From assembly GCA_030390025.1 (NCBI GenBank), contig CM059431.1, forward strand, positions 128,900,001 to 128,964,000: DNA of 64,000 bases, in the 5' to 3' direction. The translations under genes were made by a program, and so were the position numbers. Origin of the DNA: Squalus acanthias. Taxonomy: Eukaryota. Below are positions 44,736 to 64,000 of this stretch, in pieces. The notes beneath the pieces were generated by a model, which did no database searches, was not told the origin of the DNA, and was given only the letters and a program-made list of their open reading frames with translations. How positions within the stretch are numbered: position 1 is the first letter of the stretch; the number at the start of each line of letters is the position of its first letter.

Positions 44736-47700
44736 TCGTTCTGGAATGTAGGTGTCGCTGGCAAGGACAGAATTTATTGCCCATCCCTAATTGCCCTTGA
44801 GAAGGTGGTGGTGAGTCGCCTTCTTGAATGGCTGCAGTCCTTGTGAAGGTACTCTCACAGTGCTGTTAGGTAGGAAGTTCCAGGATTTTTACCCAGCGAC
44901 GATGAAGGAACGGCGATATATTTCCAAGTCAGGCTGGTGTGTAACTTGGAGGGGAACTTGCAGGTGAGGGTGTTCCTATGCGCCTGATGCCCTTGTCCTT
45001 CTAGGTGGTAGAGATCACGGGTTTGGGAGGTGCTGCCGAGAAGCCTTGGTGAGTTGCTGCAGTACATCTTATAGATGGTACACACTGCAGACACGGTGCG
45101 CCGGTGGTGGAGGGTGTGAATGCTTAAGGTGGTGGATGGGGTGCCAATCAAGCGGGCTGCTTTGTCCTAGATGGTGTCGAGCTTCTTGAGTGTTGTTGGA
45201 GCTGCACTCATCCAGGCAAGTGGAGAGTATTCCATCACACTCCTGACTTGTGCCTTGTGGTGCAAAGGCTTTGGGGAGTCAGGAGGTTAGACACTCGCTA
45301 CAGAATACCCAGCTTCTGACCTGCTCTTGTCACCACATTATTTATGTGGCTGGTCCAGTTAAGTTTCTGGTCAATGGTGACCTCCAGTATGTTGATGGTG
45401 GGGGATTTGGCGATGGTAATGCCGTTGAATGTCAAGGGGAGGTGGTTAGACTCTCGCTTGTTGGAGATAGTCATTGCCTGGCACTTGTGTGGCACAAATG
45501 TTACTTGCCACTTATCAGCCCAAGCCTGAACGTCGTCCCGGTCTTGCTGCATGCGGGCATGGACTGCTTCATTTTCTGAGGAGCTGCGAATGGAACTGAA
45601 CACTGTGCAATCATCAGCGAACATCACCACTTCTGACCTTATGATGGAGGGAAGGTCATTGATGTAGCAGCTGAAGATGGTTGGGACTGGGACACTGCCC
45701 CAAGGAACTCCTACAGCAATGTTCTGGAGCTGAGATGATTGAACTCCAACAACTACAGCCATCTTCCTTTGTGCTAGATATGACTCCAGACAGTGGAGAG
45801 TTTTCCCTCTGATTCCCATTGACTTCAGTTTTACTAGGCCTACTTGATGCCACACTCGGTCAAATGCTGCCTTGATGTCAAGGGCAGTCACTCTCACCTC
45901 ACCTCTGGAATTCAGCTCTTTTGTCCATGTTTGAACCAAGGCTGTAATGAGGTCTGGAGCTGAGTGGTCTTGGCAGAACCCAAACTGAGCATCAGTGAGC
46001 AGGTTCTTGGTGAGTAAGTGCCGCTTGATAGCACTGTCGATGACACCTTCCATCACTTTGCTGATGATTGAGAGTAGACTGTTGGGGCAGTAATTGGCCA
46101 GATTGGATTTGTCCTGGTTTTGTGGACAGGACATACCTGGGCAGTTTTCCACATTGTCGGGTAGATGCCAGTGTTCTAGCTGTACTGGAACAGCTTGGCT
46201 AGAGGCGCAACTAGTTCTGGAGTACAAGTCTTCGGCAAGACAGCCGGGATGTTGTCGGGGCCCATAGCCTTTGCTGTATCCAGTGCGCTTCAGCCGTTTC
46301 TTGATATCACGTGGAGTGAATCGAATTGGCTGAATACTGGCTTCTGTGATGGTGGGGCCCTTAGGAGGAGGCCAATATTGATCATCCACTTGGGAATTCT
46401 GGCTGAAGATGGTTGCAAACGCTTCAGCCTTGTCTTTTGCACTCGCGTGCTGGGCTCCGCCATCATTGAGGATGGGGATATTCATGAAGCCTCCTCCTTC
46501 CATTAGTTGTTTAATTGTTCATCACCATTCACGACTGGATGTGGCAGGACTGCAGAACTTTGATCTATCCGTTGATTATGGGATCGCTTAGCTCTGTCTA
46601 TAGCATGCTGCTTCCGCTGTTTAGCATGCATGTAGTTCTGCGTTGCAGCTCCCCCAGGTTGGCACCTCATTTTTAGGTACGCCTGGTGCTGCTCCTGGCA
46701 TGCTGTTGTGCACTCCTCATCGAACCAGAGTTGGTCCCCTGTCTTGATGGTAAAGGTAGAATGAGGTATATGCTGGGCCATGAGGTTACAGATTGTAGTG
46801 GAATACAGTTCTGCTGCTGCTAATGGCCCACAGCACTTCATGGATGCCCAGTCTTGAGCTGCTAGATCTGTTCTGAATCTATCCCCTTGAGTACGGTAGT
46901 AGTGCCACACAACACGATGAAGGGTGTCCTCAGCGTGAAGATGGCTCTTCGTCTCCACAAGGACTGTTCGGTGGTCACTGCTAACAATGATGTCATGGAC
47001 AGATGCATCTGTGACAGGTAGATTGGTGAGAACGAGGCCAAGTAGGTTTTTCCTTCGTGTTGGTACTCTAACCACCTGCCGCTGGCCCAGTCTGGCAGCT
47101 ATGTCCTTCAGGACTTGTCCAGCTCGGTCAGTAGTGGTGTTACCGAGCCACTCTTGGTGATGGACATTGAAATCCCCCACCCAGAAGTACATTATGTGCC
47201 CTTGCTACTCTCAGTACTTCTTCCAAGTGGTGTTCAACATGGAGGAGTACTGATTCATCAGCTGAGGGAGAGCGGTAGGTGGTAATCAGCAGGAGATTTC
47301 CTTGCCCATGTTTGACCTGATGCCATGACACTTCATGGGGTCTGGAGTCAATGTTGCGGTCCCCTAGGGCCACTCCCTCCCTACTGTATACCACTGTGCC
47401 GCCACCCCTGGTGGGTCTGTCCTGCCGATGGGATAGGGATGGTGATGGAACATTGGCCGAAATGTATGATTCTGTCAGTATGACTATGTCAGGCTGTTGC
47501 TTGATTAGTCTGTGTGACAGCTCTTCCAATTTTGAGACAAGTCCTCAGATGTTAGTGAGGAGGACTTTGCAGCATCGACTGGGCTGGGTGTGCCGTTGTC
47601 GTGTCCGAAGCTGGTGCCTAGGTCGATGCCGGGTGGTCCGTCCAGTTTTATTCTTATTATTGTTTCTCGTAGCTGTTTGTTACAACTAAGTGGCAGTTAA

Positions 47701-50582: not shown

Positions 50583-51597
50583 GGGGTAGAAATTGCTATG
50601 GGTTACACCCGTTTTTTGGGCCTAAGGGTGGAAGATGCCTGTGCGTGAATTCTTTTATCGTGGGGTGGCCGTTGCACACCAGCTACCACACAGGCTTGAC
50701 AGAGCAAGGTCTTGGTCCAATGACAAGGGGATCCAAGACGATTGGAGACCAGGCTCTGCTACATCGGCCTAGCACACACACACAAACATACTCCTACTGT
50801 CCTTCTCCCTCTTTCCCGCAGGTCCTCTCTGCCTGGGTTTCATAGGATGCAGTGTGGTCCTCCCGACCTCACTGTTGGCCCATGCTGCATCTTCCCTGGG
50901 CCCACGCTGCGTCACTCCTGGGCCTCGACCTCGCTGCTGGGCTCATCCTCAGTCCTGGGCACCGTCCTCGCTCCTGGATCCCGTCCTCCCTCCTGGGTCC
51001 CGACCTCGCTGCTCCTCCCATCCCTGCTCCTGAGCCTCGACCTCGCTCCTGGGCCTCGTCCTCGCTCCTGGGCCCCGTCCTCGCCCCTGGGCCTCATGCT
51101 CACCCCTGGGTCCCGACCTCGCTCCTGGGCCTCGTCCTCGCTCCTGGATCCTGTCCTCGCTCCTGGGTCCCAACCTCGCTGCTCCTCCCATCCCTGCTCC
51201 TGAGCCTCGATCTCGCTCCTGGGCCTTGTCCTCACTCCTGGGCCTCGTCCTCGCTCCTGGGCCTTGTCCTCGCTCCTGGGTCCCGGCCTCACTTCTCCTC
51301 CCGATCGTCAGCGTGGGCCACTCGCCGCTCCCGAGCCGCTGCCCGCTTTCTTCACAAGGCTGAGATGAATTAAACAAAGTGTTTTACATTCCTGTTCGGT
51401 GCCAGCGCCCCGCGCTCGCCGCCCGCCGCCATCTTCTGTGACCCGTTTTTTGGGCCTAAAGTGGGCTCACATCAAACCAATTTAGCAGTGGGGTTTCCTG
51501 TCTCCAATCCGTGCAGGTGTGGCCCCACTACTAAATTTGTGGGAACCATTTTTTAGGTGTCCATCCAGAAGGCGCAATGCATACAAATTTCTACCCC
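50583..51597. mobile_element. Harbinger-type non-autonomous element containing a GC-rich minisatellite
   Basis: Perfect 12-bp TIR ggggtagaaatt / aatttctacccc, identical to the left TIR of 1999-6254; no matching TSD. Confidence 0.7.
50915..51290 (+). repeat. Degenerate GC-rich minisatellite (cctcgctcctggg-based units)
   Basis: Direct reading of repeated ctcgtcctcgctcctgggc units. Confidence 0.9.
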
Positions 51598-52890: not shown

Positions 52891-53925
52891 TGATCGAAGG
52901 CTTCCTGCGTGCTCAGGCCTCCGATCTGGAAAAAATCTACGCCCTTACCTGAGGGCTCCGGAGGTCCAGACATTTCCGCTCCTGAGCCTCTGCTCTATGA
53001 AATGCGCAGGGCGTCCCTGAGATCACGTGGGCCATGGGGAAACAATCAAAGAAGCGAATCCCCCTTCACACTTTTGACAGGTCTCTCAGCTTAGACCTGT
53101 CAAATGTATGAATGGGAATCACTCAAAAAACATCAAAATATTAAATACATTTTTTTTAAATCACTTTTTAAAATTAGTTAAAATTAAATTAAATATTTTA
53201 AACAAAAATTTAATTTTTTGAAAACATTTTTTTTTTTACGGGGCTAAAAATAAACTTACCTTTTCAAAAGTATTTTTATTTTTTTTAAACTCTTATGCTG
53301 GTAAAAGCAAGCCTTACACCTGCTTTTACCAAGCGTAAGATTTTTAAGGGATTTCAGCGGGCGGAGGTTCTGCAGAAAGCGGAACTCTCCACCCGCAGAG
53401 GTCCTTCTCCAGGGCAGGCGGAGGATCTGTCAAGAGCATTCTTGACAGATCGGAAGTGCCGGTTTTCAGCGCATGTGCTTCGCAAGCCTGAAACCTGCAC
53501 TTGCGAGGTCCCTACGGGTGTGTACACACCTCGTACGCACCTGTAGGGATCGGAAAATACGGGCCAATGTGTAGCTGGATTGCAACAAACAGTAATGCAT
53601 TATGCAAGTGAATGCTTCCCTGGGAACTGCACAATACATTGGCCCCGATATTTACAGGGAGAGTGCAACGGGGTGGCGGGGGGCAAAAACGGCTGAAGAA
53701 CCTGGCAAGGCCAGGGATGTGGAAGTCCTGCTGAACATAATGGCAGGATCTCATTTATATTTTTTTGATCCGTTTCCCACCTGGCACCTGGCCAAATTGA
53801 CAGCCTGGCCTGCAGCCAGGAGGAAGAACTAACGGCAGGAAGCCACAGCCGGGGACCCTTGGGGATGGTCCCAAGCAATCGGGATGGGGGAAGGTCGGAC
53901 ATCGCGGCTTTGGGGGGAGAGCGAG

Positions 53926-54127
53926 GACATCGGGGCTGGAGGGAGTGAAAGGACATCGGGGCTGGAGGGAGTGAAAGGACATCGGGGCTGGAGGGAGTGA
54001 AAGGACATCGGGGCTGGAGGGAGTGAAAGGACATCGGGGCTGGAGGGAGTGAAAGGACATCGGGGCTGGAGGGAGTGAAAGGACATCGGGGCTGGAGGGA
54101 GTGAAAGGACATCGGGGCTGGAGGGAG
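53926..54127 (+). repeat. 26-bp minisatellite, about 8 copies
   Basis: Unit gacatcggggctggagggagtgaaag. Confidence 0.95.
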
Positions 54128-54169
54128 AGAGAAGAAGTGATCGGCAGAGGGGAGGCCAAAGTTTTTTTT

Positions 54170-56524
54170 TATTCGTTCCAGGGATGTAGGCGTCACTGGC
54201 AAGGCCAGCATTTATTGCCCATCCCTAATTGCCCTTGAGAAGGTGTTGGAGAGCTGTCTACTTGAACCGCTGCAGTCCTTGTGGTGAATGCGCTCCCACA
54301 GAGCTGTTAGGGAGGGAGTTCCAGGATTTTGAAGGAACAGCGATATATTTCCAAGTCAGGATGGTGTGTAACTTGAAGGGGTACTTGGGAGCTGATTTTG
54401 CCAATGGGGACGTGATGGAGGCGGGGCTACTGCTTGTTGGGTTTTAATCCCGCCTCCATCGACTTGTGGCCAATCCACGCTATTTTCCCTTGATTGACCT
54501 TGTTAAGCCCGCCCAGCAGGTTTAGCAGGCCAATTAAGGGAAAGCCGGTGACAGAGAACGTCAGCGTATCAGCTTTGAGAAGCTGTCAAACACTGACATT
54601 CTCTGTTGTTTGGTGAGTCCTTGTATTCAAGACTCACCAAACCTATTTCCTGAGCAGAAATCAGATGGCTGTTGCATCAGAGAATGCAGCAGCCATTCTG
54701 TCATCTCTGCTGTGGAGATGCCGGAGCCTCCAGATCCCCACCGATTGAAGCCTGCAGGAAGAAACAAAGGTAAGGAAGCTTTTTCGAAGACTTTTCACTC
54801 ACCTCACATACTTACCTCTCCACACTTGCACCCATCACTCACCTCCACAGCGGACTTTTCGACCCCTCTCACCCCCGCAGACCCACTGCTCGCCTCGCTG
54901 ATCCTGGCGGGGTTTCCCGATGTCGGGAAGCCCGCACTTGTGTTGGAAAAATGGGGATAATCCTCTTAACTGCCTGTTAACTACCTGTTAACAGGCAGTT
55001 AAGTGGCTGTAATCCCCTTCCCGCCTCGAGGAGACGGGTCCCAGCGTGAGTCAGGGACCCGCCTCCTGGGACGATGACACGAGGTGGGTTGGGGGCGGGT
55101 TTGGTACCCGCTCCAAGTTTCTGCCATTTTCCCGGCAGTCCCGCCTCCATACCCACCTCCCCAGGGCTGGCAAAATCGCCCCCAAAGTGTTCCAATGCGC
55201 CTGCTGCCCTGTCCTTCGAGCTGGTAGAGGTCGCGGGTTTAGGAGGTGCTGTTGAAGAAGCCTTGGCGAGTTGCTGCAGAGCATCTTGTAGATGGTACAC
55301 ACTGCTGCCACGGTGCGCCGATGGTAGAGGGAGTAAATATTTAAGGTGGTGGATGGGGTGCCGACCAAGCGGGCTGCTTTGTCTTGGATAGTGTCTAGCT
55401 TCTCGAGTGTTGTTGGAGCTGCACTCATCCAGGCAAGTGGAGAGTATTCCATCACACTCCTTACTTGTGCCTGGTGGAAAGGCTTTGGGGAGTCAGGAGG
55501 TGAGACACTGACCACAGAATACCCAGCCTCTGACCTGCTCTTATAGCCACAATATTTATGTGGCTGGTCCAGTTAAGTTTCTGGTCAATGGTGACCCCCA
55601 GGATGTTGATGGTAGGGGATTCGGCGATGGTAATGCAGTTGAATGTCAAGGGGCGGTGGTTAGACTCTCTCTTGTTGGAGATAGTTATTGCCTGGCACTT
55701 GTGTGGCACAAAAGTTACTTAGCACTTATCAGCCCAAGCCTGAGTGTTGTCCAGGTCTTGCTGCATGCGGGCATGGACTGCTTCACTATCTGGGGAGTTG
55801 TGAATGGAACTGAACACTGCGCAATCGTCAGCGAACATCCCCACTTCTCACCTTATGATGGAGGAAAGGTCATTGTAAAGCAGCTGAAGATGGTTGGGCC
55901 TAGGACACTGCCCTGAGGAACTCCTGCAGCAGTGTCCTGGGTCTGAGATTATTGACCTCCAACAACCGCAACCATCTTCCTTTATGCTAGGTATGACACC
56001 AGCCAGTGGAGAGTTTTCCCCCTGATTCCCATTGATTTCAATTTTACTGGGGCTCCTTGATGCCACACTCAGTCAAATGCTGCCTTGATGTCAAGGGCAG
56101 TCACTCTCACCTCAACTCTGGAATTCAGCTCTTTTGTCCATGTTTGGACCAAGGCTGTAATGTGGTCTGGAGCCGAGTGGTCCTGTTGGAACCCAAACTG
56201 AGCATCGGTGAGCAGGTTATTGGTGAGTAACTGCTGCTTGATAGCACTCTCGATGACACCTTCCATCACTTTGCTGATGATTGAGAGTAGACTGATGGGG
56301 CGTTAATTGGCCGGATTGGATTTGTCCTGCTTTTTGTTGACAGGACATACCTGGGCAGTTTTCCACATTGTCTTGTAGGTGCCAGTGTTCTAGCTGTACT
56401 GGAACAGTTTGGCTAGAGGCGCGGCCAGTTCTGGAGCTCAAGTCTTCAGCACAACAGCCGGGATGTTGTCGGTGCCCATAGGTTATGCTGTATCCAGTGC
56501 GCTCAGCCATTTCTTGATATCACA
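54170..56524 (-). mobile_element. LINE RT region (family of 44736-47980), host of the provirus; continues at 63849-64000
   Basis: Colinear with 44740-46310; DAQFGFQQDHSAPD, ALDIKAAFD. Confidence 0.88.
54387..55183. mobile_element. Harbinger-type MITE nested in the LINE
   Basis: gggagctgattttgcc...ggcaaaatcgccccc inverted ends; LINE sequence resumes after it. Confidence 0.65.
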
Positions 56525-57318
56525 TGTAAGGGTGTGGGTTGTGATAAGAGTCAGCCTTTCCCCTGACTCAGTGAGCGGTTCGAATCGCTCCCACGCCCCA
56601 GGTTCAAAACTTGGACTTATTTAGGGGTTGTGAATAAAGATGCAGTAGACCACAGGTTCCAATGAAAGAACTATAACTTTTATTAAATTTAAAAGGTAAC
56701 AAACTTAAACACACTTCACACTCAAACAGGTTTGGGGAGCACACGGTTACAGGCAAGGAAAATGACAGTATACAAGAAAAATAAAAACCTTTATCCCTCC
56801 CAAAAAATCCCACTCCTAGCTAGGTTTCGGTTTCAGGAGATCAGGGATAATGCTCACCAGACAGGGGTATTAACAATCCGAAATGCAGCCAGGTAAGTCG
56901 ATGGTGATTCTGGTCATCGAACGTCTTCCTTTACCTTGTGGCTTCTGGGCAGTGCTGCCAGAGACCCCTTGCTTCCAGCGTAGTCGGTCGAGTCGAAAGG
57001 AGAGAGAAACCTTGGGTCCTGCTGCAATTATAGTCATTTTCGCCTCCCCCCCCCACCACAAACTCCTCATGAAAAAAACTGGTTTCGTAATGCAGTGAGT
57101 TTTCAGGTGAGGCCTGTTCATTGTCTTGTTGAAATTTTGTTGGGCTCTGTGTTTTGGGTGGGGCAGTTTTTCCCCAGAGCCTATTCGCCAAATGGTGATG
57201 TTTTGCTGGTCTTTTGAATTCCCAGACCAGGCACGTTTCCTTTACATTTCCAAAGTCTTTATTTTTTTTTTCCTTTCGATATATGTTTTGGGGATCTGCA
57301 AATTTTGGAAATCTTACA
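56525..57318 (-). repeat. 3' LTR (about 794 bp)
   Basis: TGTAAG...CTTACA perfect 6-bp inverted termini; preceded on - by purine-rich gcaggagggac (57319-57329). An alternative boundary at 57431 (aaaggggaa-TG) cannot be excluded. Confidence 0.75.
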
Positions 57319-57607
57319 GTCCCTCCTGCGATACTTCAGTTCACTACAGTATCGTCCTGGGTGGACAAAATTCCTGATCCCCGAAAACCAACCTTCCCCT
57401 GTATTACCTAAACTAAAACCCCAAACATACATTCCCCTTTAAATGTGGTGTTTTAGGTACATACAGGTAAGAAAATCTTTATTTCACAACCAAGCACGGA
57501 GAGGGTCCGACACCCCTGCACTGCTTGGGAAAACACATATCTTTATTACAAAGAACAAAACACAAAAAAAGCAACAATCTTTATTCAGGAACACAGAATA
57601 AAAACAT

Positions 57608-60600
57608 TCAAACAGGTGTATCTCTCTCCACCTCAGCATAATGCTTCCTCCAAGTCCTTTCATTTCGGAACTGTAGTATTCTGCCCTTTCCCTTGCACTG
57701 AGTGCACACCAGGTACAATACTATTCCCAGTTGGCAAGCTACGAGGAGGTGGGAAGCCATTCTGACCCATGAAGGGACCTCTATGTTTTCGAAGATGTCC
57801 CACCAGGGTGGGACTGTGATACCTTGAATCTCTCGCTCTATCTCGTGTGTATTCTGTTCTAAAGTGTAGAAATGTTTTTGAGCGAGCTCTACAGCTTTAA
57901 GTAGGATGGTAAGATGTTCGGGTAGAGGGGGTATTTTATATCCAAAGTAAGTCACATACTTTTGCAGGTTGGTGATGTTTTCTGTTACAGTGAGGTGAAC
58001 AGTGGAGGGTTCGGGAATGGGGACAATCCGTTCCTGGGCCACTTGAACTTCTGCCTCGGGTTTAAAGCAGAAACTGCTGTCACTTACCGGACACCAGAAG
58101 TGTCCATGCTGGTAGTGGGACGCACCTGTGGTGACACAATGGGCCAAAAATTGATCCCGCTGCGCGAGAGTACGCACTGCGTACTCTCGCGTATTCTCTC
58201 TCCAATTGCCGGTTTTCTGCATGCCCTGCGCATGCGCTGAAAACCGGCACTTGGTCTTTGGAAAAGGGGGCGGTTCCTCGGTGCACAGCGTGCGCGCTAC
58301 AGGCTGCGCGCACGCTGTGCACTTAGTGCTTTGGACGCGCAGGTAAGGACGGAAGATTTTAGAAATGGAAAAAGGAGGAGTAAGACCCACTTTTAACAAG
58401 GTAAGTAGTGAATTAAGTATTTTTTTGAATTTTTTTTAACAGGTATATCTTTTTTAGAGACTTTAAAGACAGGTAAGTTTATTTTTATAACTTTTTAAAA
58501 GATTTTAAATGTTTTCAAAAATTTAATTTTTTATTTAAAATGGTTAATTTATTTAACTATACTTATTTTATTAATGTGATGGTTTTTAAAAAAAAATTAA
58601 TTGAGGTTTAGCTGTTATTTTGGGGGTGTGTAAGATTCATAGCTTTCACAGCACGTATGTGAAACTTATGAATGGAAGATGGTGTGCTGCCATTGGCTCT
58701 AACTGAGTCACGTGATCCCACAGCTCGCACGAATTCACTACGCCGGTGGGATACGCAAGCACTGCCCAGCTGATGTCTGGAACATCAAGTTCGTGCGAGC
58801 TGGATCTGAAAAAGCCAACGCGGAGTGAGAGATCGCGCCTGCTCCTTACCCCCGCGGGAACAGAGCGAGATCAATTTCTGAGCCAATATGTCCCACCCCC
58901 TATATATGCGACCTGTGGGGAAACATGGCCGTGTGCCATCACCTCCATGGTACAATTGATAGGTCGTGCGCCAGCAGCTTTAAACCCGCACTGTGGTTTG
59001 GAATAGGCGTTCAAGTGCTGGGGACACAGTATTATGTGTGAACCCCGGCTCCGGCACCCGGATAGGTCATTACCTGTCATGGCGTGCTCCCACTTTATGA
59101 CATAAGGTGGGACCGCTGTAAAACGGATGGGTGCACCCCCTTGAATGACTCCAATGTTCTCCACCCTGTATACCGGTACGGGTCGGGCTGTCCCACTCAT
59201 GACCGGCATTCTCACTACTATCCCCATGATAGTGTGATTTGAACGCCCACAATCTATTGGGACAGGGTAGGCTTCAGAGGCTAGACAAAATTGGCATGGG
59301 CTCAGCAAATTACTAAACGGGTGGAGGGCTGCGAGGTGCTTGTTGCTGATCCAGGAGGGGACTAAACCTTGCTTTAAATCCTCCAGGTTGCTACGGCCCT
59401 CGCCCAGCAACCATGCCCCGTACAGCACACACACCTCATTCTGTGCAGCCTGATCCGATGCTTTCCTATCCTCCCGTATGAGTGCATTTACTGTTTTGGC
59501 ATGCCTTTCCAATTCTGCAATAATTTCCTTTAAATGAACCGTCATAGCTTGGTCCTCATGTCGCTCTGAGCCTACCACTGTGTTCCCATCCTTCAGGATC
59601 TTTCTTAACTTGGTTTTTAAACCATTTATCTGTGTCTGTAATTCCATGTCATCCAGGCTATTTATTACAGAGGACCCTGTACTATAGGCAGTGAAGACAT
59701 CATTCCAGGCTCCCCTTCTTTGTCTACCCGTGCCCATAGGGTTCTCAGGGTGTATTCTGCATAGCTCTACTTTGTCTAATATTGGCAAAATCAAATTCGT
59801 AAAATTTCCTAAACATTTCCTTTAGCAGGGCCTGGTACAGTTGCTCCGTCTCCTTAGGACACCACTCAGGTAAGTATACCTCGGTGAGGTTTAATATTAC
59901 TGAAGCTACTGCATAGTGTACCCCCTGGTATAGTACCTTTTCGGTTGGTACTAGGACTAACCCATTCCCTGGTCCCTTGGTGGTGGTAGGGCACTTTTCT
60001 TCCAGGGTTTTCGGTACCTGGGTCGTGGGTAGGGGCTTTCGGGTGTGTGCCACGAGTTCAGTGGCATTAACTGGGACCAGAATGTGTGGGACCACGCACC
60101 CATGCAGGCTAGAATCCCACCCTGTCCCCTCCCCGGCATCCTGCCATTGGCTGGAGAAGATGATGGATACCCCTGTGGGGCAGGCTTCCTCTGATCCCCA
60201 CATACAAACATAGACTCCCTGTTCCGACTCCCACCACTTATCCCAACAAACACTGACTCCTCCTTGGGTCCCTGTGATTGTCCGGTGGGTGTCGTTCCCT
60301 AATCTTTCCCAGTCGGCTGTATGGTCCCCTGCGTCCCTGCTCAGCTTCCTGAGCCACCACCACCTATTTAGGGGAATTCGTCCCTTACAGGTAAGGCACA
60401 CACGCTTCCCCTCGGTGACACTGACCCTTGTGGCAACGACCTGTATTCTGGGGCATGGGAGGGAGGCCTCCCCGTACGTGAACCCGGGCTGGTTGGAGTA
60501 TTTAGTAGAGTTGGACCCCAGCCACCCTGGCCACCTTCCCTCATGGAAGTAGATGGCGTGCTCCTCCACTCCCCGCTCGCCACCCCCTGCGGTGACGACT

Positions 60601-60704
60601 GGTGCTCTCACTCCTGAGCACCCATAGATGTTGGAGTCCTCCACGTCACCTCGCCTCCCAGCGCTCATTCCTATCAGAGAGAGTAGGAGTATGCCCCCCT
60701 TCAT
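57608..60704 (-). pseudogene. env: env-like glycoprotein (about 780 aa reconstructed): signal peptide, Ig-like domain, RQRR furin site, heptad repeat, Cys-rich ectodomain, TM; one frameshift near 59780 and a MITE insertion
   Basis: MKGGILLLSLIGMSAG; VSVTEGKRVCLTC..W..EQGVYVC; RQRR|GAWNDVFTAYSTGSSVINSLDDMELQTQINGLK; TM MASHLLVACQLGIVLYLVC; removing the MITE restores GGGTY-CVTTG in frame. Confidence 0.85.
58141..58884. mobile_element. Harbinger-type MITE inserted in env
   Basis: TIRs gggccaaaaattgatc and gatcaatttctgagcc; AAT TSD at 58138-58140 and 58885-58887. Confidence 0.92.
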
Positions 60705-60718
60705 ATCGACAATCCCTT

Positions 60719-60745
60719 CTGTAAGGAGACACAAGAGCATATAGC
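60719..60745 (-). promoter_or_regulatory. Putative env splice acceptor
   Basis: Minus strand ctcttgtgtctccttacAG lies 14 nt upstream of the signal-peptide ATG (60704). Confidence 0.6.
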
Positions 60746-61017
60746 CAGGTCCCGAGTAGATTCTCTGGCTTGGGTGAAGCATAGTCGGTTCTTGCGACCT
60801 CGACTCAATACAAAACACTCTTGAAATTATAACATTTTAAAACTACCAACGACCTTACTTAAAATTTAACTAAAAACACCCAAACTTAACAATCTCAAAA
60901 TTTAATAAACAAAAGCTATGTACATTCGCCGCCCGTCTCCGGACGGCTAGCCTAACTCCTGTCAGGACTGCAGCACCCTACTCCCTTTGGTGTGGCCGCC
61001 CTGTCCTGTACCTTTGG

Positions 61018-61806
61018 TCACTTGCAGCCTATGGCTGCTGGCCGGGAACCTCTGTCCTCAGATCGGCCCCTGGCTTGAGGGGCGGCCCTTTTAAATTGGG
61101 GAGCCGGTGACCACGGTTTCTTTGGCTGTGGCGTACGTGGGGACCTTTTAGGGGCTCTGGCTGGTGGGGGTTTAACATGAGCCACTGCCCCCTGTTGTGT
61201 GGTCTGTGAATCTTCCACGGCCACTGGCTGGGGATTTCTATCCTCAGGCTGTACCTCTCCTAAACCTGTTTCAGGGTCAAGTGACTCTTCGCCGCCTGGT
61301 GCTGGTTCAACTCCTGGTTCGGGGGCGGGGCTATCTGGTTCGGGCTTCTCCTCCTCTAAATCCCAGAGGATTGGGGGAATGTCCCAACCGGTGGGTGGGG
61401 GTGGGGTGGCCCCTCCCCTAAGACAAGCCACTGCGCCTGCTTGTGCATTCTGTGAAATCTCGCCTGCTGGAGGTTGCAGATTTCTATTCTGTTTTAGTTT
61501 GGGCAACTCTGCTACCATGGCTTGCAACTGCGGGGTGGTGAATTCCCCCGGGGTTGTTGATCAAACCATCCCTCTGGCTTTGGATAGGGCTTGGGTCAGA
61601 CCTATTATCCTTTCCTCACAGGGCCCATGGTTTAAATCCTCATACTCCCTGCTCCTGGCCACCCTGTAGGCTGCCTTTATGTCTCTAAGCTGCCCTTCTA
61701 GCCCGTCTACTTTCCCCATTAAGCGGACGTTCTCCTCCCGTAAGGCCTGCTCATTTAACCTGGCCTCCTTACGGGAGGTCTCTTCCTGTGTGTGTCTTTC
61801 AAGGGG
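61018..61806 (-). pseudogene. ORF-X: gag-paralogous coiled-coil segment plus Pro/acidic/basic tail, internal TGA at 61561-61563
   Basis: EARLNEQALREENVRL...IKAAYRV...NHGPCEERIIGLTQALSKARGMV* continues in frame into ORF 61018-61527. Confidence 0.7.
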
Positions 61807-61836
61807 TCACAGGTAGGCAGGCTGTGCTGGTTCCAG

Positions 61837-63637
61837 TCAGAAGTCTGGGTTGTATGGGGCTGCTGCTACCTTCCCTGGGCCAGTCAATAGGGACCTCATG
61901 GCGTCCAAAAATGACTCGACTGTGGCGGGAGGGATCCCTGCCTCTGCCTTTTGGGCTGGGGCTGAGGAATTCTTTCCCATGTTATCCTTCCAAGGATTCT
62001 TACACTCCTTCCTCCAGTGACCATCCTTCCCACACCCATAACAGTTAAGCTTTGTGCTGGAAGGGTTATTCCCCTCCTGATGCCACTCCTTCCTACTCTG
62101 GCCGGGTTTTATCTCATGTACTTTCCCTTTTTGTGGGGGCTCTTCCGCCCCTCTCCCGTTCCGGTAGGCCAGGTTCAGCTGTCTGACCACTGCCTCTTCG
62201 GTGCCCCGGGGGTCTTTCGGGTCAAACCAAAGCTCAGCCTGGGTTTTGATCCAAGGCAAGCTGTTTGCCACTAGGCTACGGAGCCAGTGGGCCAGCTCGT
62301 CCCGGTTTATGTGAGCCCTATTAAGATCCCCACCACAAGCACCCCTGTACACGGGCCACAGCCTGTCTGCAAAAGCCTGTGGGGTCTCTCCTGCGAGCTG
62401 CACTGTTTTCTCCACCCGGGAGAAAGGACTTTCCTCATTCATCCCCATTGCCTCTAAAACTTCCTCAGTGTTGGCCGCATACCCATTCTGTCCTCTCTTG
62501 CTCTCAGCAGAGAGAGACTGATATAACCGGCTGTCCAGTGAGAACAGGAGCATTTTTGCCATCTCGGCATCGTCACAGCCGTTAATGCTTGCTGCCTGTT
62601 CTATCTCTATGAAGTGAACTGAGGGGTCCCCTTGTTGGGTGAGTTTACTCAGGTGGCTTACCATAACCCTAAGCTGTTGTGTACCGTGGGGAGCCACGAA
62701 CTGGCTTTGGAGGGGTCCCGCCTCCCCGTTATCAGCGGGTGGGCCAAATCTGTCCTGCCGGGCCGGGCACATCGGCCCCGGTCCCAGCCTCTCTTGCGGG
62801 GTTTTTTTCCACCTCAGCTTCTGCCCCTAACTCCACCCCTTCTTCTTGCCAGACTGCGCTAAAGCTTGGCGCTATGGGTGGTGGTTGTGGGCCCTCCCGC
62901 TCCTCAACCGGGTCGTCCCTTGGCGCTATCTTTGGTGTCTGAACCGTTCTCCCCAGGTTCCCTGTAAAGTCGACCTGGGCTGCACTTGGGCTTATGAGGC
63001 ACACCACGCCTCTTGCCTTCCTTAGAGCAAGGCTGAGACTCTCTATCTGCTTCTGGCAGGGGCCGTGGTCCGCACCCTCAAACCCCTGTGCGCTCATTAC
63101 CTTATAGGCTGCCTGTAAGCCTTTTACTGTCTCCTCCTGCTCTCTTACTTGTTTTGCCAGGCGGGCATTCTTTTCCCGCAACCTCAGCTCATTGTTCTTG
63201 GCCTCAGTGACCTGGCACTGTAAGTAATCCTGTCGGGTCTTGTGTTCCCCCACTAACTGCACCCTTTCCTGGTTTAGTGCCTGCAATGCTAACAGTAACT
63301 TCTCCCCTGCTAGGGCCTTCGTTTGGACTTCCAGGGCCGACTCCCGAATCTCGGCTGCCTGTGCTTCAACGAGTCTGTCCAAAAGTTGAATCTGTTTCTT
63401 GAAGCACATCAGCCAGACTGCCTTTTCTAAGGATTTTTTATGATCCTTCCCTTCTGTCCATTTAGCTGCTGCATCTACCGGGCGCCCAGTTTTTAATAGA
63501 TTAGTGACCCACTTCTTTTCCATATTCACTTTGCTGAATACATAATCTGAAATCCTCTCTTCCATTACAGTTCTCTCTTCTGAATCAGTGTCTACTGCTT
63601 CACAACCCTTTTGCCAAGTCTTTGCCACGGTCGCCAT
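61837..63637 (-). pseudogene. gag: gag (N-terminal coiled coil, capsid-like region, CCHC zinc knuckle), one frameshift near 62750
   Basis: Overlapping ORFs 62732-63637 and 61837-62772; CYGCGKDGHWRKEC = CX2CX4HX4C; located directly after LTR/PBS. Confidence 0.85.
63615..63636 (-). promoter_or_regulatory. Primer-binding site, tRNA-Arg-like
   Basis: TGGCGACCGTGGCA begins 3 nt after the LTR end (...TTACA aaa TGG) and resembles the complement of the vertebrate tRNA-Arg(TCG) 3' end, recalled from memory. Confidence 0.7.
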
Positions 63638-63639
63638 TT

Positions 63640-63848
63640 TGTAAGGGTGTGGGTTGTGATAAGAGTCAGCCTTTCCCCTGACTCAGTGAGCGGTTCGAAT
63701 CGCTCCCACGCCCCAGGTTCAAAACTTGGACTTATTTAGGGGTTGTGAATAAAGATGCAGTAGACAACAGGTTCCGATTAAAGAATTATAACTTTTATTA
63801 AAGTTAAAAGGTAACAAACTTAAACACACTTCACACTTAAACAGGTTG
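63640..63848 (-). repeat. 5' LTR remnant (3'-terminal 209 bp only)
   Basis: Matches 56525-56733 with about 6 substitutions; abuts LINE sequence. Confidence 0.9.
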
Positions 63849-64000
63849 GTTCTCTCACCACCTGCTGCAGGCCCAGACTGGCAGCTATGTCCTTCAGGAC
63901 TCGGCCAGGTCGGTCAGTAGTGTTGCTACCGAGCCAACCTTGGTGATGGACATTGAAGCTCTCCACCCAGAGTAAATTCTGTGCCCTTGCTACCCTCAGT
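63849..64000 (-). mobile_element. LINE APE region (continuation of the host LINE)
   Basis: Colinear with about 47063-47215. Confidence 0.85.

Follow-up and report, generated by a model that had tools for sequence, protein, structure and literature searches.

An immunoglobulin-like domain predicted at the N-terminus of an F-like retroviral envelope protein from Squalus acanthias

Viral fusion proteins of the F type usually rely on a separate protein for attachment, and in the paramyxoviruses this role belongs to HN, H or G. In the gammaretroviruses, the surface subunit (SU) carries an N-terminal beta-sandwich receptor-binding domain that is followed by a proline-rich region and a C-domain. Here we describe a stretch of 64,000 nucleotides from the genome of Squalus acanthias (GenBank assembly GCA_030390025.1, contig CM059431.1, positions 128,900,001 to 128,964,000; the whole stretch is called the window), which contains a dead copy of an endogenous retrovirus (ERV) with a broken env gene on the minus strand. 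The envelope protein (Env) of this ERV family very probably carries an immunoglobulin (Ig)-type beta-sandwich ahead of a fusion protein body that resembles F. F-like machinery has been described in other retroviruses. Lokiretrovirus Env is related to the F proteins of paramyxoviruses and pneumoviruses (Wang and Han, Mol Biol Evol 2020/21, PMC7947760), and foamy virus Env has a fusion core with F-protein domains I-III (Fernandez et al., Sci Adv 2024, PMC11468914). The receptor-binding domain of foamy virus Env spans about 330 residues, is not Ig-like and interrupts domain III, in the interval from HRC to the furin site (PMC11468914). The module predicted in the window family differs in being Ig-like and in sitting at the extreme N-terminus, before the first F2-equivalent strand. 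The F proteins of paramyxoviruses and pneumoviruses themselves (1ztm, 8dmj, 3rki, 2b9b) share with the window Env body the whole predicted fold and a furin-type site followed by the fusion peptide, but F has no N-terminal module and there is no sequence-level Pfam match between it and the window Env.

The window family and the lokiretroviruses have several features in common (PMC7947760). In both, Env comprises signal peptide, basic cleavage site, fusion peptide, coiled coil and transmembrane segment, and both follow the order gag-pol-env with a pol that combines a tether with RNase H and with an F-like env. Xenopus tropicalis, one of the lokiretrovirus hosts, also harbors relatives of the window-family Env. 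They differ at the N-terminus, as the Env model in the available portion of the lokiretrovirus paper includes no Ig-like or receptor-binding domain and the word "immunoglobulin" occurs there 0 times. Lokiretroviruses are reported in that portion from five host classes without Chondrichthyes, and the four cartilaginous-fish genomes in Table S2 stand without the asterisk borne by, for example, Xenopus tropicalis and Petromyzon marinus (PMC7947760). A lokiretrovirus would be expected to have a reverse transcriptase in the position of sister to those of all other retroviruses. Placement of the window family by its pol gene is not informative, with similar scores for the reverse transcriptase-tether region against murine leukemia virus (191 bits), foamy virus (174 bits) and Ty3 (144 bits). 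The original prediction had not recognized an Ig-like domain on an F-like Env as a standard architecture, and this judgment agrees with the literature searched (subscription journals lay outside its scope), where no description of an N-terminal Ig module on an F-like retroviral Env was found. By term search, a 2026 review of ERV structures and a preprint on the F-type env of invertebrate elements contain "immunoglobulin" and "Ig-like" 0 times.

Read from the minus strand, the env product begins with MKGGILLLSLIGMSAG (from 60704) and proceeds through ...RVSVTEGKRVCLTCKGRIPLNRWWWLRKLS...GGVSVCWDKWWESEQGVYVCMWGS... and HTRKPLPTTQVPKTLEEKCPTTTKGPGNG to the body. Behind the signal peptide comes a segment of about 65 residues, then PCPRIQVVATRVSVTEGKRVCLTCKGRIPLNRWWWLRKLS...GGVSVCWDKWWESEQGVYVCMWGS, then the Pro/Thr-rich HTRKPLPTTQVPKTLEEKCPTTTKGPGNG and then the start of the fusion protein body. 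The Ig-type motif set that first drew attention to this region is in frame exactly as quoted, since the minus-strand frame at 60138-60458 reads identically. The signature of the Ig superfamily (IgSF) is present, with VCLTC in the B strand, RWWWL supplying the C-strand Trp and ESEQGVYVC in the F strand. Two alignments were used in these analyses, namely A3, a 17-sequence alignment of the N-terminal region, and A4, a seven-sequence profile of the Ig core. A4 has 30 invariant columns, which include both Cys residues of VCLTC, the final Trp of RWWWL and the residues of G-x-Y-x-C. The Pfam family Ig_3 matches residues 123-205 of the open reading frame (ORF; window 60204-60452) over 73 of its 78 profile positions, with E 0.0063 (17.4 bits) for the whole ORF and E 9e-4 (20.1 bits) for the domain alone. 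Matches below threshold also appear in diverged members of the family (L028, E 5.8e-3; L035, 4.3e-3; P0069, 2.7e-3; P0010, 8.5e-3; P0001, 0.023), which brings the total to six members with E from 9e-4 to 0.023. When the A4 profile was compared with the sequences in the PDB, the best matches were to the Ig-V domain of CRTAM (E 0.004 with 20.5 bits, and E 0.0087), followed by DIP-eta, neurotrimin and basigin. The alignment with CRTAM runs from end to end, pairing profile positions 8-99 of 106 with chain residues 7-97 of 101. A single-sequence phmmer search of the PDB returned only non-significant matches to basigin and antibodies (E 0.26-0.9). In the ESM Atlas feature search, the window family scored 0.91 and the frog relative P0019 scored 0.84, both with Ig families, and these values serve as leads only. 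Each of these sequence tests is weak taken singly, and their agreement is beyond what chance would produce.

Structure prediction points in the same direction. The 231-residue N-terminal region was modeled with AlphaFold2 (AF2) from A3, and the best model has a mean pLDDT of 63.8 and a pTM of 0.66, with means of 66-79 over 10-residue blocks of the Ig core. It shows seven strands and a long C-D loop without clear C' or C'' strands, and further strands at model residues 10-46 in the beta-rich segment that precedes the core. A VIA-align comparison with 48,161 representative chains gave 50 at Z>=8, and the 50 listed are all Ig folds (Z 8.0-8.9; root-mean-square deviation 2.4-4.2 A; 90-101 residues aligned; about 90% of the target domains covered). 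Examples are CD79b (92 of 95 residues), CD8alpha, the T-cell receptor V domain, the IgNAR V domain, titin and basigin, at identities of 8-25% (20% for basigin). All 49 rows listed by Foldseek for this model are likewise Ig domains, among them neuroplastin, basigin, antibody VL, the shark IgNAR V domain and SIRPalpha. Not all of the original assignment is secured by these tests. The claim of an Ig-like beta-sandwich behind the signal peptide is borne out by the Ig_3 and CRTAM matches, the AF2 model and the uniformly Ig structural matches, and the Thr/Pro-rich linker announced behind it is also in place. The narrower V-set label fits only in part. The B-, C- and F-strand motifs and a best profile match to an Ig-V domain agree with it, but the Pfam scan gave no match to V-set PF07686, the best Pfam family is Ig_3, the two Cys residues are 61 residues apart (about 65-75 is the V-set criterion) and the C' and C'' strands are not clear.

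A number of results weigh against an Ig assignment and have to be set beside the favorable ones. The best Ig_3 score of 20.1 bits lies below the gathering cut-off of 30 bits, and no sequence test reaches a curated threshold. P0002 and P0008 have no Pfam Ig match despite their conserved motifs; the truncated P0014 and P0030 have none either. Of the five AF2 models, just one, the best, reaches moderate confidence (mean pLDDT 63.8, 54.0, 41.5, 41.4 and 40.4), and in the full-length model residues 1-261 are almost all below a pLDDT of 50. The VIA-align Z scores of 8-9 are middling on the tool's own scale, where Z 7-8 is common for unmatched models, and Foldseek against the PDB gave 0 matches at E<=1e-3 for the N-terminal model. 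One could accordingly suppose that the region is no Ig domain at all but a chance Cys/Trp-rich motif predicted as a generic beta sandwich, an explanation that would suit sequence scores that are all sub-threshold, three poor AF2 models out of five and a Z level that unmatched models commonly attain. We consider it improbable. Ig_3 is matched over nearly its full length and in six diverged members, the profile match to an Ig-V domain runs end to end, the listed VIA-align (50 of 50) and Foldseek (49 of 49) rows are Ig domains, and the canonical residues fall in invariant columns of A4. No single test is decisive, and it is the agreement of independent tests that leads us to accept the Ig-type sandwich, which window 60138-60458 encodes with high probability judging from sequence and model together.

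The remainder of Env resembles F much more plainly in predicted structure than in sequence. With the full-length model, Foldseek found 229 chains at E<=1e-3, led by F of human parainfluenza virus 3 (6e-11) and followed by the F proteins of respiratory syncytial virus, parainfluenza virus 5, Newcastle disease virus and henipavirus. VIA-align gave Z 11.0-12.8 over 275-367 aligned residues, with 224 chains at Z>=8. In 48 of the 50 listed rows, the start of mature F2 (residues 24-38 of the F chains) is paired with model residues 269-272. The body thus aligns from the first mature F residue, so the first ~270 residues form an N-terminal extension. Helices are predicted at 360-470 and 705-737, as expected for HRA and HRB, and at 755-804 in the transmembrane region. 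In P0001, the uninterrupted 808-residue Env of another copy, a basic site stands directly before the fusion peptide (RQRR|GAWNDVFTAYSTGSS), and its equivalents in relatives are RHRR, RRKRR and RSKR, a pattern from which we infer cleavage of the furin type. These results uphold the description of the body as F-like. What speaks against it is the paramyxovirus F family PF00523, which has no match in P0001 at E<=1 and none in 14 relatives at E<=0.1. This distinguishes the window-family Env from Loki-Str Env, which matches PF00523 at 2.2e-7 (PMC7947760). One of the 14 relatives has a weak Baculo_F match (E 0.0011). Among solved proteins, the only family found with the env family profile was foamy virus Env (8ozh, E 1.6e-4; 8rm1; 8rm0). 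Sequence and models together give a predicted order of signal peptide, beta segment of about 65 residues, Ig-like domain, beta hairpin region of about 40 residues and Pro/Thr-rich linker, and onward through the body with an F2-like segment, the RQRR furin site, fusion peptide and HRA, domains I-III, HRB and the transmembrane segment.

This arrangement suggests how the protein may work. The element has a single glycoprotein gene, F-type cores normally need a separate means of attachment, and the Ig module would lie between the signal peptide and the cleavage site, borne on a Pro/Thr-rich, probably flexible linker. For these reasons we take the module to be the receptor-binding domain. It would supply attachment in cis on the surface subunit, and binding of a receptor would free the F-like core to refold. 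We hold this proposal, receptor contact and triggering included, with moderate confidence. The logic is that of gammaretrovirus SU, which likewise joins an N-terminal beta-sandwich through a Pro-rich linker to a part that contacts the fusion subunit, but the likeness is an analogy only, as the gammaretroviral fusion machinery belongs to a different family and no gammaretroviral receptor-binding domain is among the top structural matches to the N-terminal model. Another role for the module would be that of a structural cap or shield on the prefusion F-like trimer, with receptor contact made elsewhere on the protein. Some F proteins themselves bind receptors, and N-terminal domains stabilize or mask some spike proteins. 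The flanks of the Ig core are also conserved, including the invariant RWPGWLGSNST.YS with its N-glycan sequon, and the strong purifying selection described below fits a structural role equally well. Nevertheless, a cap seems unlikely to us, because a long, low-confidence Pro/Thr-rich linker is more in keeping with a tethered binding domain than with a tight cap and the full-length AF2 model has no confident contact between module and body.

Foldseek against viral structures raises a further alternative. It returned no retroviral Env for the N-terminal model, and among viral structures the nearest came from large DNA viruses, in the form of Ig-like proteins (the haemagglutinin of poxviruses, the vIg families of herpesviruses and CR1 of adenoviruses, with E from 2e-3 to 5e-2). 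Poxviruses and herpesviruses carry host-derived immune-modulating or decoy domains, and the Ig domain could be one such domain placed on Env, which the original prediction had also allowed for. The chances of this seem low. The viral matches are weak and reflect the Ig fold in general, the domain shares one reading frame with the fusogen and is not a separate or secreted protein, protein searches give no close host homologue for it to mimic, and retroviral surface subunits bear their receptor-binding domains at the very position of the Ig module. If the module is indeed the receptor-binding domain, it would be a handle for finding the receptor of an uncharacterized deep-branching group of retroviruses and a further case of modular assembly in viral entry proteins, and it would bear on how retroviruses and negative-strand RNA viruses share a fusogen. 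An N-terminal, tethered IgSF module on an F-like retroviral Env would then be a third solution to attachment, next to the separate protein and the internal insertion of foamy viruses.

Whatever its function, the module appears to be an integral and long-conserved part of the Env of a high-copy ERV family with thousands of copies. A search of the S. acanthias genome (3.71 Gb) with the N-terminal ORF gave 7688 first-look candidates, of which 114 were scored. All 114 have a single in-frame match of at least 323 residues across the Ig region at 81-100% identity, and by a hand count 68 of them are free of stops. A second lineage in the same genome is about 60% identical over the N-terminal 270 residues with the Ig core nearly unchanged. 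P0002 from a skate and P0003 from a sawshark, relatives at 61% and 68% identity respectively, retain the Cys residues of the core and nearly all of its Trp residues. An expectation that related copies would carry the domain in frame was thus confirmed both within this genome and beyond it. Between lineages, at dS 0.4-2.0, the ratio of nonsynonymous to synonymous substitution (dN/dS; Nei-Gojobori) is 0.08-0.16 in the Ig core, compared with 0.17-0.20 in the segment before it and 0.29-0.56 in the segment after it. The lowest ratio falls in the Ig core, which therefore was under the strongest constraint in the N-terminal region while these viruses diverged. Near-identical copies have dN/dS near or above 0.5, in line with decay after integration.

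More distant relatives were sought with the 808-residue Env in a phmmer search of 1.84 billion representative proteins, which gave 52 matches at E<=1e-3. Nine of these span the Ig-bearing N-terminal region; they are close relatives with 46-69% identity, and several lie in chimeric gene models. No ordinary host IgSF protein is among the 52. The named relatives come from sharks (Chiloscyllium, Mustelus, Heterodontus, Heptranchias, Scyliorhinus, Pristiophorus and Rhincodon), from a skate and from the frogs Xenopus tropicalis, Pelodytes and Mantella. Distant full-length relatives (18-27% identity) align only from about query residue 250-262, near the linker, and have N-terminal regions of their own of about 140-185 residues. 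Ig-like motifs can be seen by eye in four of five such regions (P0012, P0019, P0040 and P0033), and the fifth, P0013, looks different. The UniRef name of P0012 is "Ig-like domain-containing protein". Pfam gave V-set for P0033 (E 0.0015), Ig_3 and Ig_2 for P0012 (E 0.11) and no match for the N-terminal segments of P0019, P0040 and P0013. Profile comparison by hhalign of A3 with P0012 and with P0019 aligned the body only. Between the domain-only profiles of the two shark groups, only the E-F strand motif W-x-x-[FW]-W-x4-G-x-[YI]-x-C, which both share, was aligned (hhalign E 0.064; E 0.0046 with a probability of 7.6%), and a P0012-like profile found only FcgRIIA in the PDB (E 0.72). These comparisons are no more than suggestive of common ancestry for the modules of the window family and of the distant relatives, and an ancestral Ig module for the whole Env clade is plausible. 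Taken further, an ancient adhesion-type IgSF domain would be the receptor-binding module of an F-type Env clade in sharks, rays and frogs, and the elements would be an undescribed lokiretrovirus-like lineage of cartilaginous fishes. We put this combined proposal forward tentatively, as it is rather more likely to fail in one part or another than to hold. If it were true, a vertebrate retrovirus lineage would have met the need for attachment with a cell-adhesion Ig domain joined directly to a fusogen of the paramyxovirus type. The matches do place retroviruses with an F-like Env in cartilaginous fishes, from which the available portion of the 2020 lokiretrovirus survey reports none (PMC7947760).

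Side observations on these relatives concern their present state. Next to the young family, the S. acanthias genome harbors many env lineages of the P0012 type that are older and more decayed (loci L036-L045). Their identity to P0012 is 33-81% and most contain several stops, but at least one lineage of this type has an open frame of 784 residues. In the gene models P0003, P0004, P0005 and P0037 (ZFP2-like, Niban 1-like, cadherin-related 5-like and fbxo15), env fragments are fused to host domains; these fusions are probably annotation chimeras that arose from ERV insertions.

Where the Ig module came from can be answered in part. The original prediction called it a captured host domain. As a statement about a recent event this does not stand, since the domain is common to lineages separated by dS >1.4 and so was not recently captured by the window element, and no significant host donor appeared either in the search of 1.84 billion proteins or in the sequence search of the PDB. 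The canonical IgSF signature does argue for an ultimately cellular origin, and we infer that the module derives from a host in this older sense. By profile and by recurrent structural matches, the nearest cellular families appear to be adhesion-type Ig domains (CRTAM and nectin-like proteins, IgLON/DIP, basigin/neuroplastin), none of which can be named as the source. The fusogen itself offers another conceivable donor, as domain II of F and of foamy virus Env has an immunoglobulin-superfamily fold (PMC11468914), so that the N-terminal domain might have arisen by internal duplication with no host involved. This is the least probable of the alternatives weighed here. The Ig-core profile found nothing in the Env body by hhalign (residues 595-685, E 0.69; 500-600, E 0.34; 262-340, E 0.31), and the N-terminal domain bears a cellular IgSF sequence signature in its Ig_3 and CRTAM matches. 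Duplication of domain II was set aside for want of any signal across this range of E values (0.31-0.69), and ultimate derivation from a cellular IgSF domain stays the preferred origin.

Table 1. Coordinates of env, its parts and the ERV copy that contains it, in window positions
Feature	Position	Strand	Basis or remark
env gene	57608..60782	minus	808 aa where uninterrupted in other copies; broken in window
Putative signal peptide MKGGILLLSLIGMSAG	60657..60704	minus	sequence read by eye
N-terminal beta-rich segment	60459..60656	minus	invariant motif RWPGWLGSNST.YS (alignment A3)
Predicted Ig-like domain core	60138..60458	minus	Pfam Ig_3 match 60204-60452, profile, model, dN/dS
Pro/Thr-rich linker (TRKPLPTTQVPKTLEEKCPTTTKGPGNG)	59961..60047	minus	low-confidence, unstructured in both AF2 models
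F2-like segment	59714..59972	minus	first-mature-F2-residue equivalent through furin-type site RQRR
Furin-type site RQRR	59725-59714	minus	read in shifted frame
One-base frameshift	59779	minus	codon 335, relative to other copies
743-bp insertion, MITE-like	58141..58883	minus	~24-bp terminal inverted repeats; splits fusion-protein body
Transmembrane segment ASHLLVACQLGIVLYLVCTQC	57695..57757	minus	followed by 28-aa tail
Endogenous retrovirus copy, pol deleted	56525..63850	minus	5' LTR remnant, coiled-coil/gag, integrase tail, env, 3' LTR
5' LTR remnant	63640..63850	minus	last ~210 bp of ~750-800-bp LTR
3' LTR	56525..57323	minus	direct repeat and match to full-length copy
gag region	61837..63637	minus	coiled-coil ORF 63637-62732 and CCHC zinc-knuckle ORF 62772-61837
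Integrase C-terminal remnant	61018..61527	minus	rve and SH3_Tf2-1 in equivalent L003 ORF
aa, amino acids; LTR, long terminal repeat; MITE, miniature inverted-repeat transposable element.

The env gene of the window copy (Table 1) is 98.3% identical to that of P0001 over the first 1.9 kb, and its N-terminal part lies in an open minus-strand frame of 357 residues (window 60818-59745). Two lesions interrupt it further on. The extra base at 59779 is absent from the sequencing contigs of all four runs compared, and the 743-bp insertion is skipped by the contigs of all four. The insertion has an AT-rich center, and its contig depth exceeds that of its flanks by a factor of hundreds to thousands. The contigs of these four runs contain no leader-to-env joint, a result that has no bearing on expression with the molecule type unspecified. 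An RGD tripeptide (RRGDVEDS, window ~60650) stands at the predicted mature N-terminus and recurs in several lineages of this genome, and it is absent from L035, from the skate and sawshark sequences and from other relatives; it is probably fortuitous.

The layout of the element follows from BLASTN comparison with the full-length copies L022 and L023. A direct repeat of 208 bp (56525-56732 and 63640-63847, 97% identity) marks the LTRs. The LTR of the full-length copy occupies positions 1785-2542 of L023 in reverse complement (L023rc), to which window 57323-56570 is 90.5% identical, and the 5' side of the window copy matches only from L023rc 2379. The full-length copy L023 encodes a pol of 1420 residues in which Pfam finds RVP, RVT_1, RT_RNaseH_2 (the tether), RNase_H, Integrase_H2C2 and rve. 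In the window copy, about 3.76 kb of pol is absent between roughly 61490 and 61861. With this deletion, the env frameshift and the transposon insertion in env, the window copy is non-functional. It is dead, and the interest lies in the family to which it belongs. A Rfam scan of the element gave no match.

Upstream of env, the CCHC ORF of the window matches Pfam zf-CCHC (E 0.0012), and in copy L021 it forms a single frame of 510 residues with the coiled-coil ORF (L021 6888-8420, zf-CCHC). In the window, the coiled-coil ORF encodes 301 residues (62732-63637) directly after the 5' LTR, and its ATG overlaps a primer-binding-site-like sequence (TGGCGACC...) three bases past the LTR. A coiled-coil ORF ahead of gag is comparable to the "smc" gene of some lokiretroviruses (PMC7947760), and the 301-residue ORF, fused to gag in L021, may be its counterpart. 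A single stop codon divides gag from pol, which share one reading frame (L021 6888-9332; L022 4928-7999), an arrangement suggestive of readthrough of the kind used by gamma- and epsilonretroviruses. The window copy is not alone in its pol deletion. Among 19 close copies (L002-L020), 12 continue unbroken across the junction of gag and integrase tail, six break at 61490 with integrase upstream and one matches only from 61035. A junction common to other copies means that a pol-less gag-env variant has multiplied, presumably with pol supplied in trans. Some members of this variant still have an open env.

Two further kinds of repeat were noted in the window. A second repeat of about 1.2-2 kb, with 83-92% identity between copies (45039-47185 against 55256-56503 and 63845-63971), lies on both sides of the ERV, which seems to have landed in or beside a copy of it; about 770 bp of the repeat is unaccounted for. 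Tandem arrays occupy 50872-51305 and 53859-54170, with periods of 19 bp and 26 bp.

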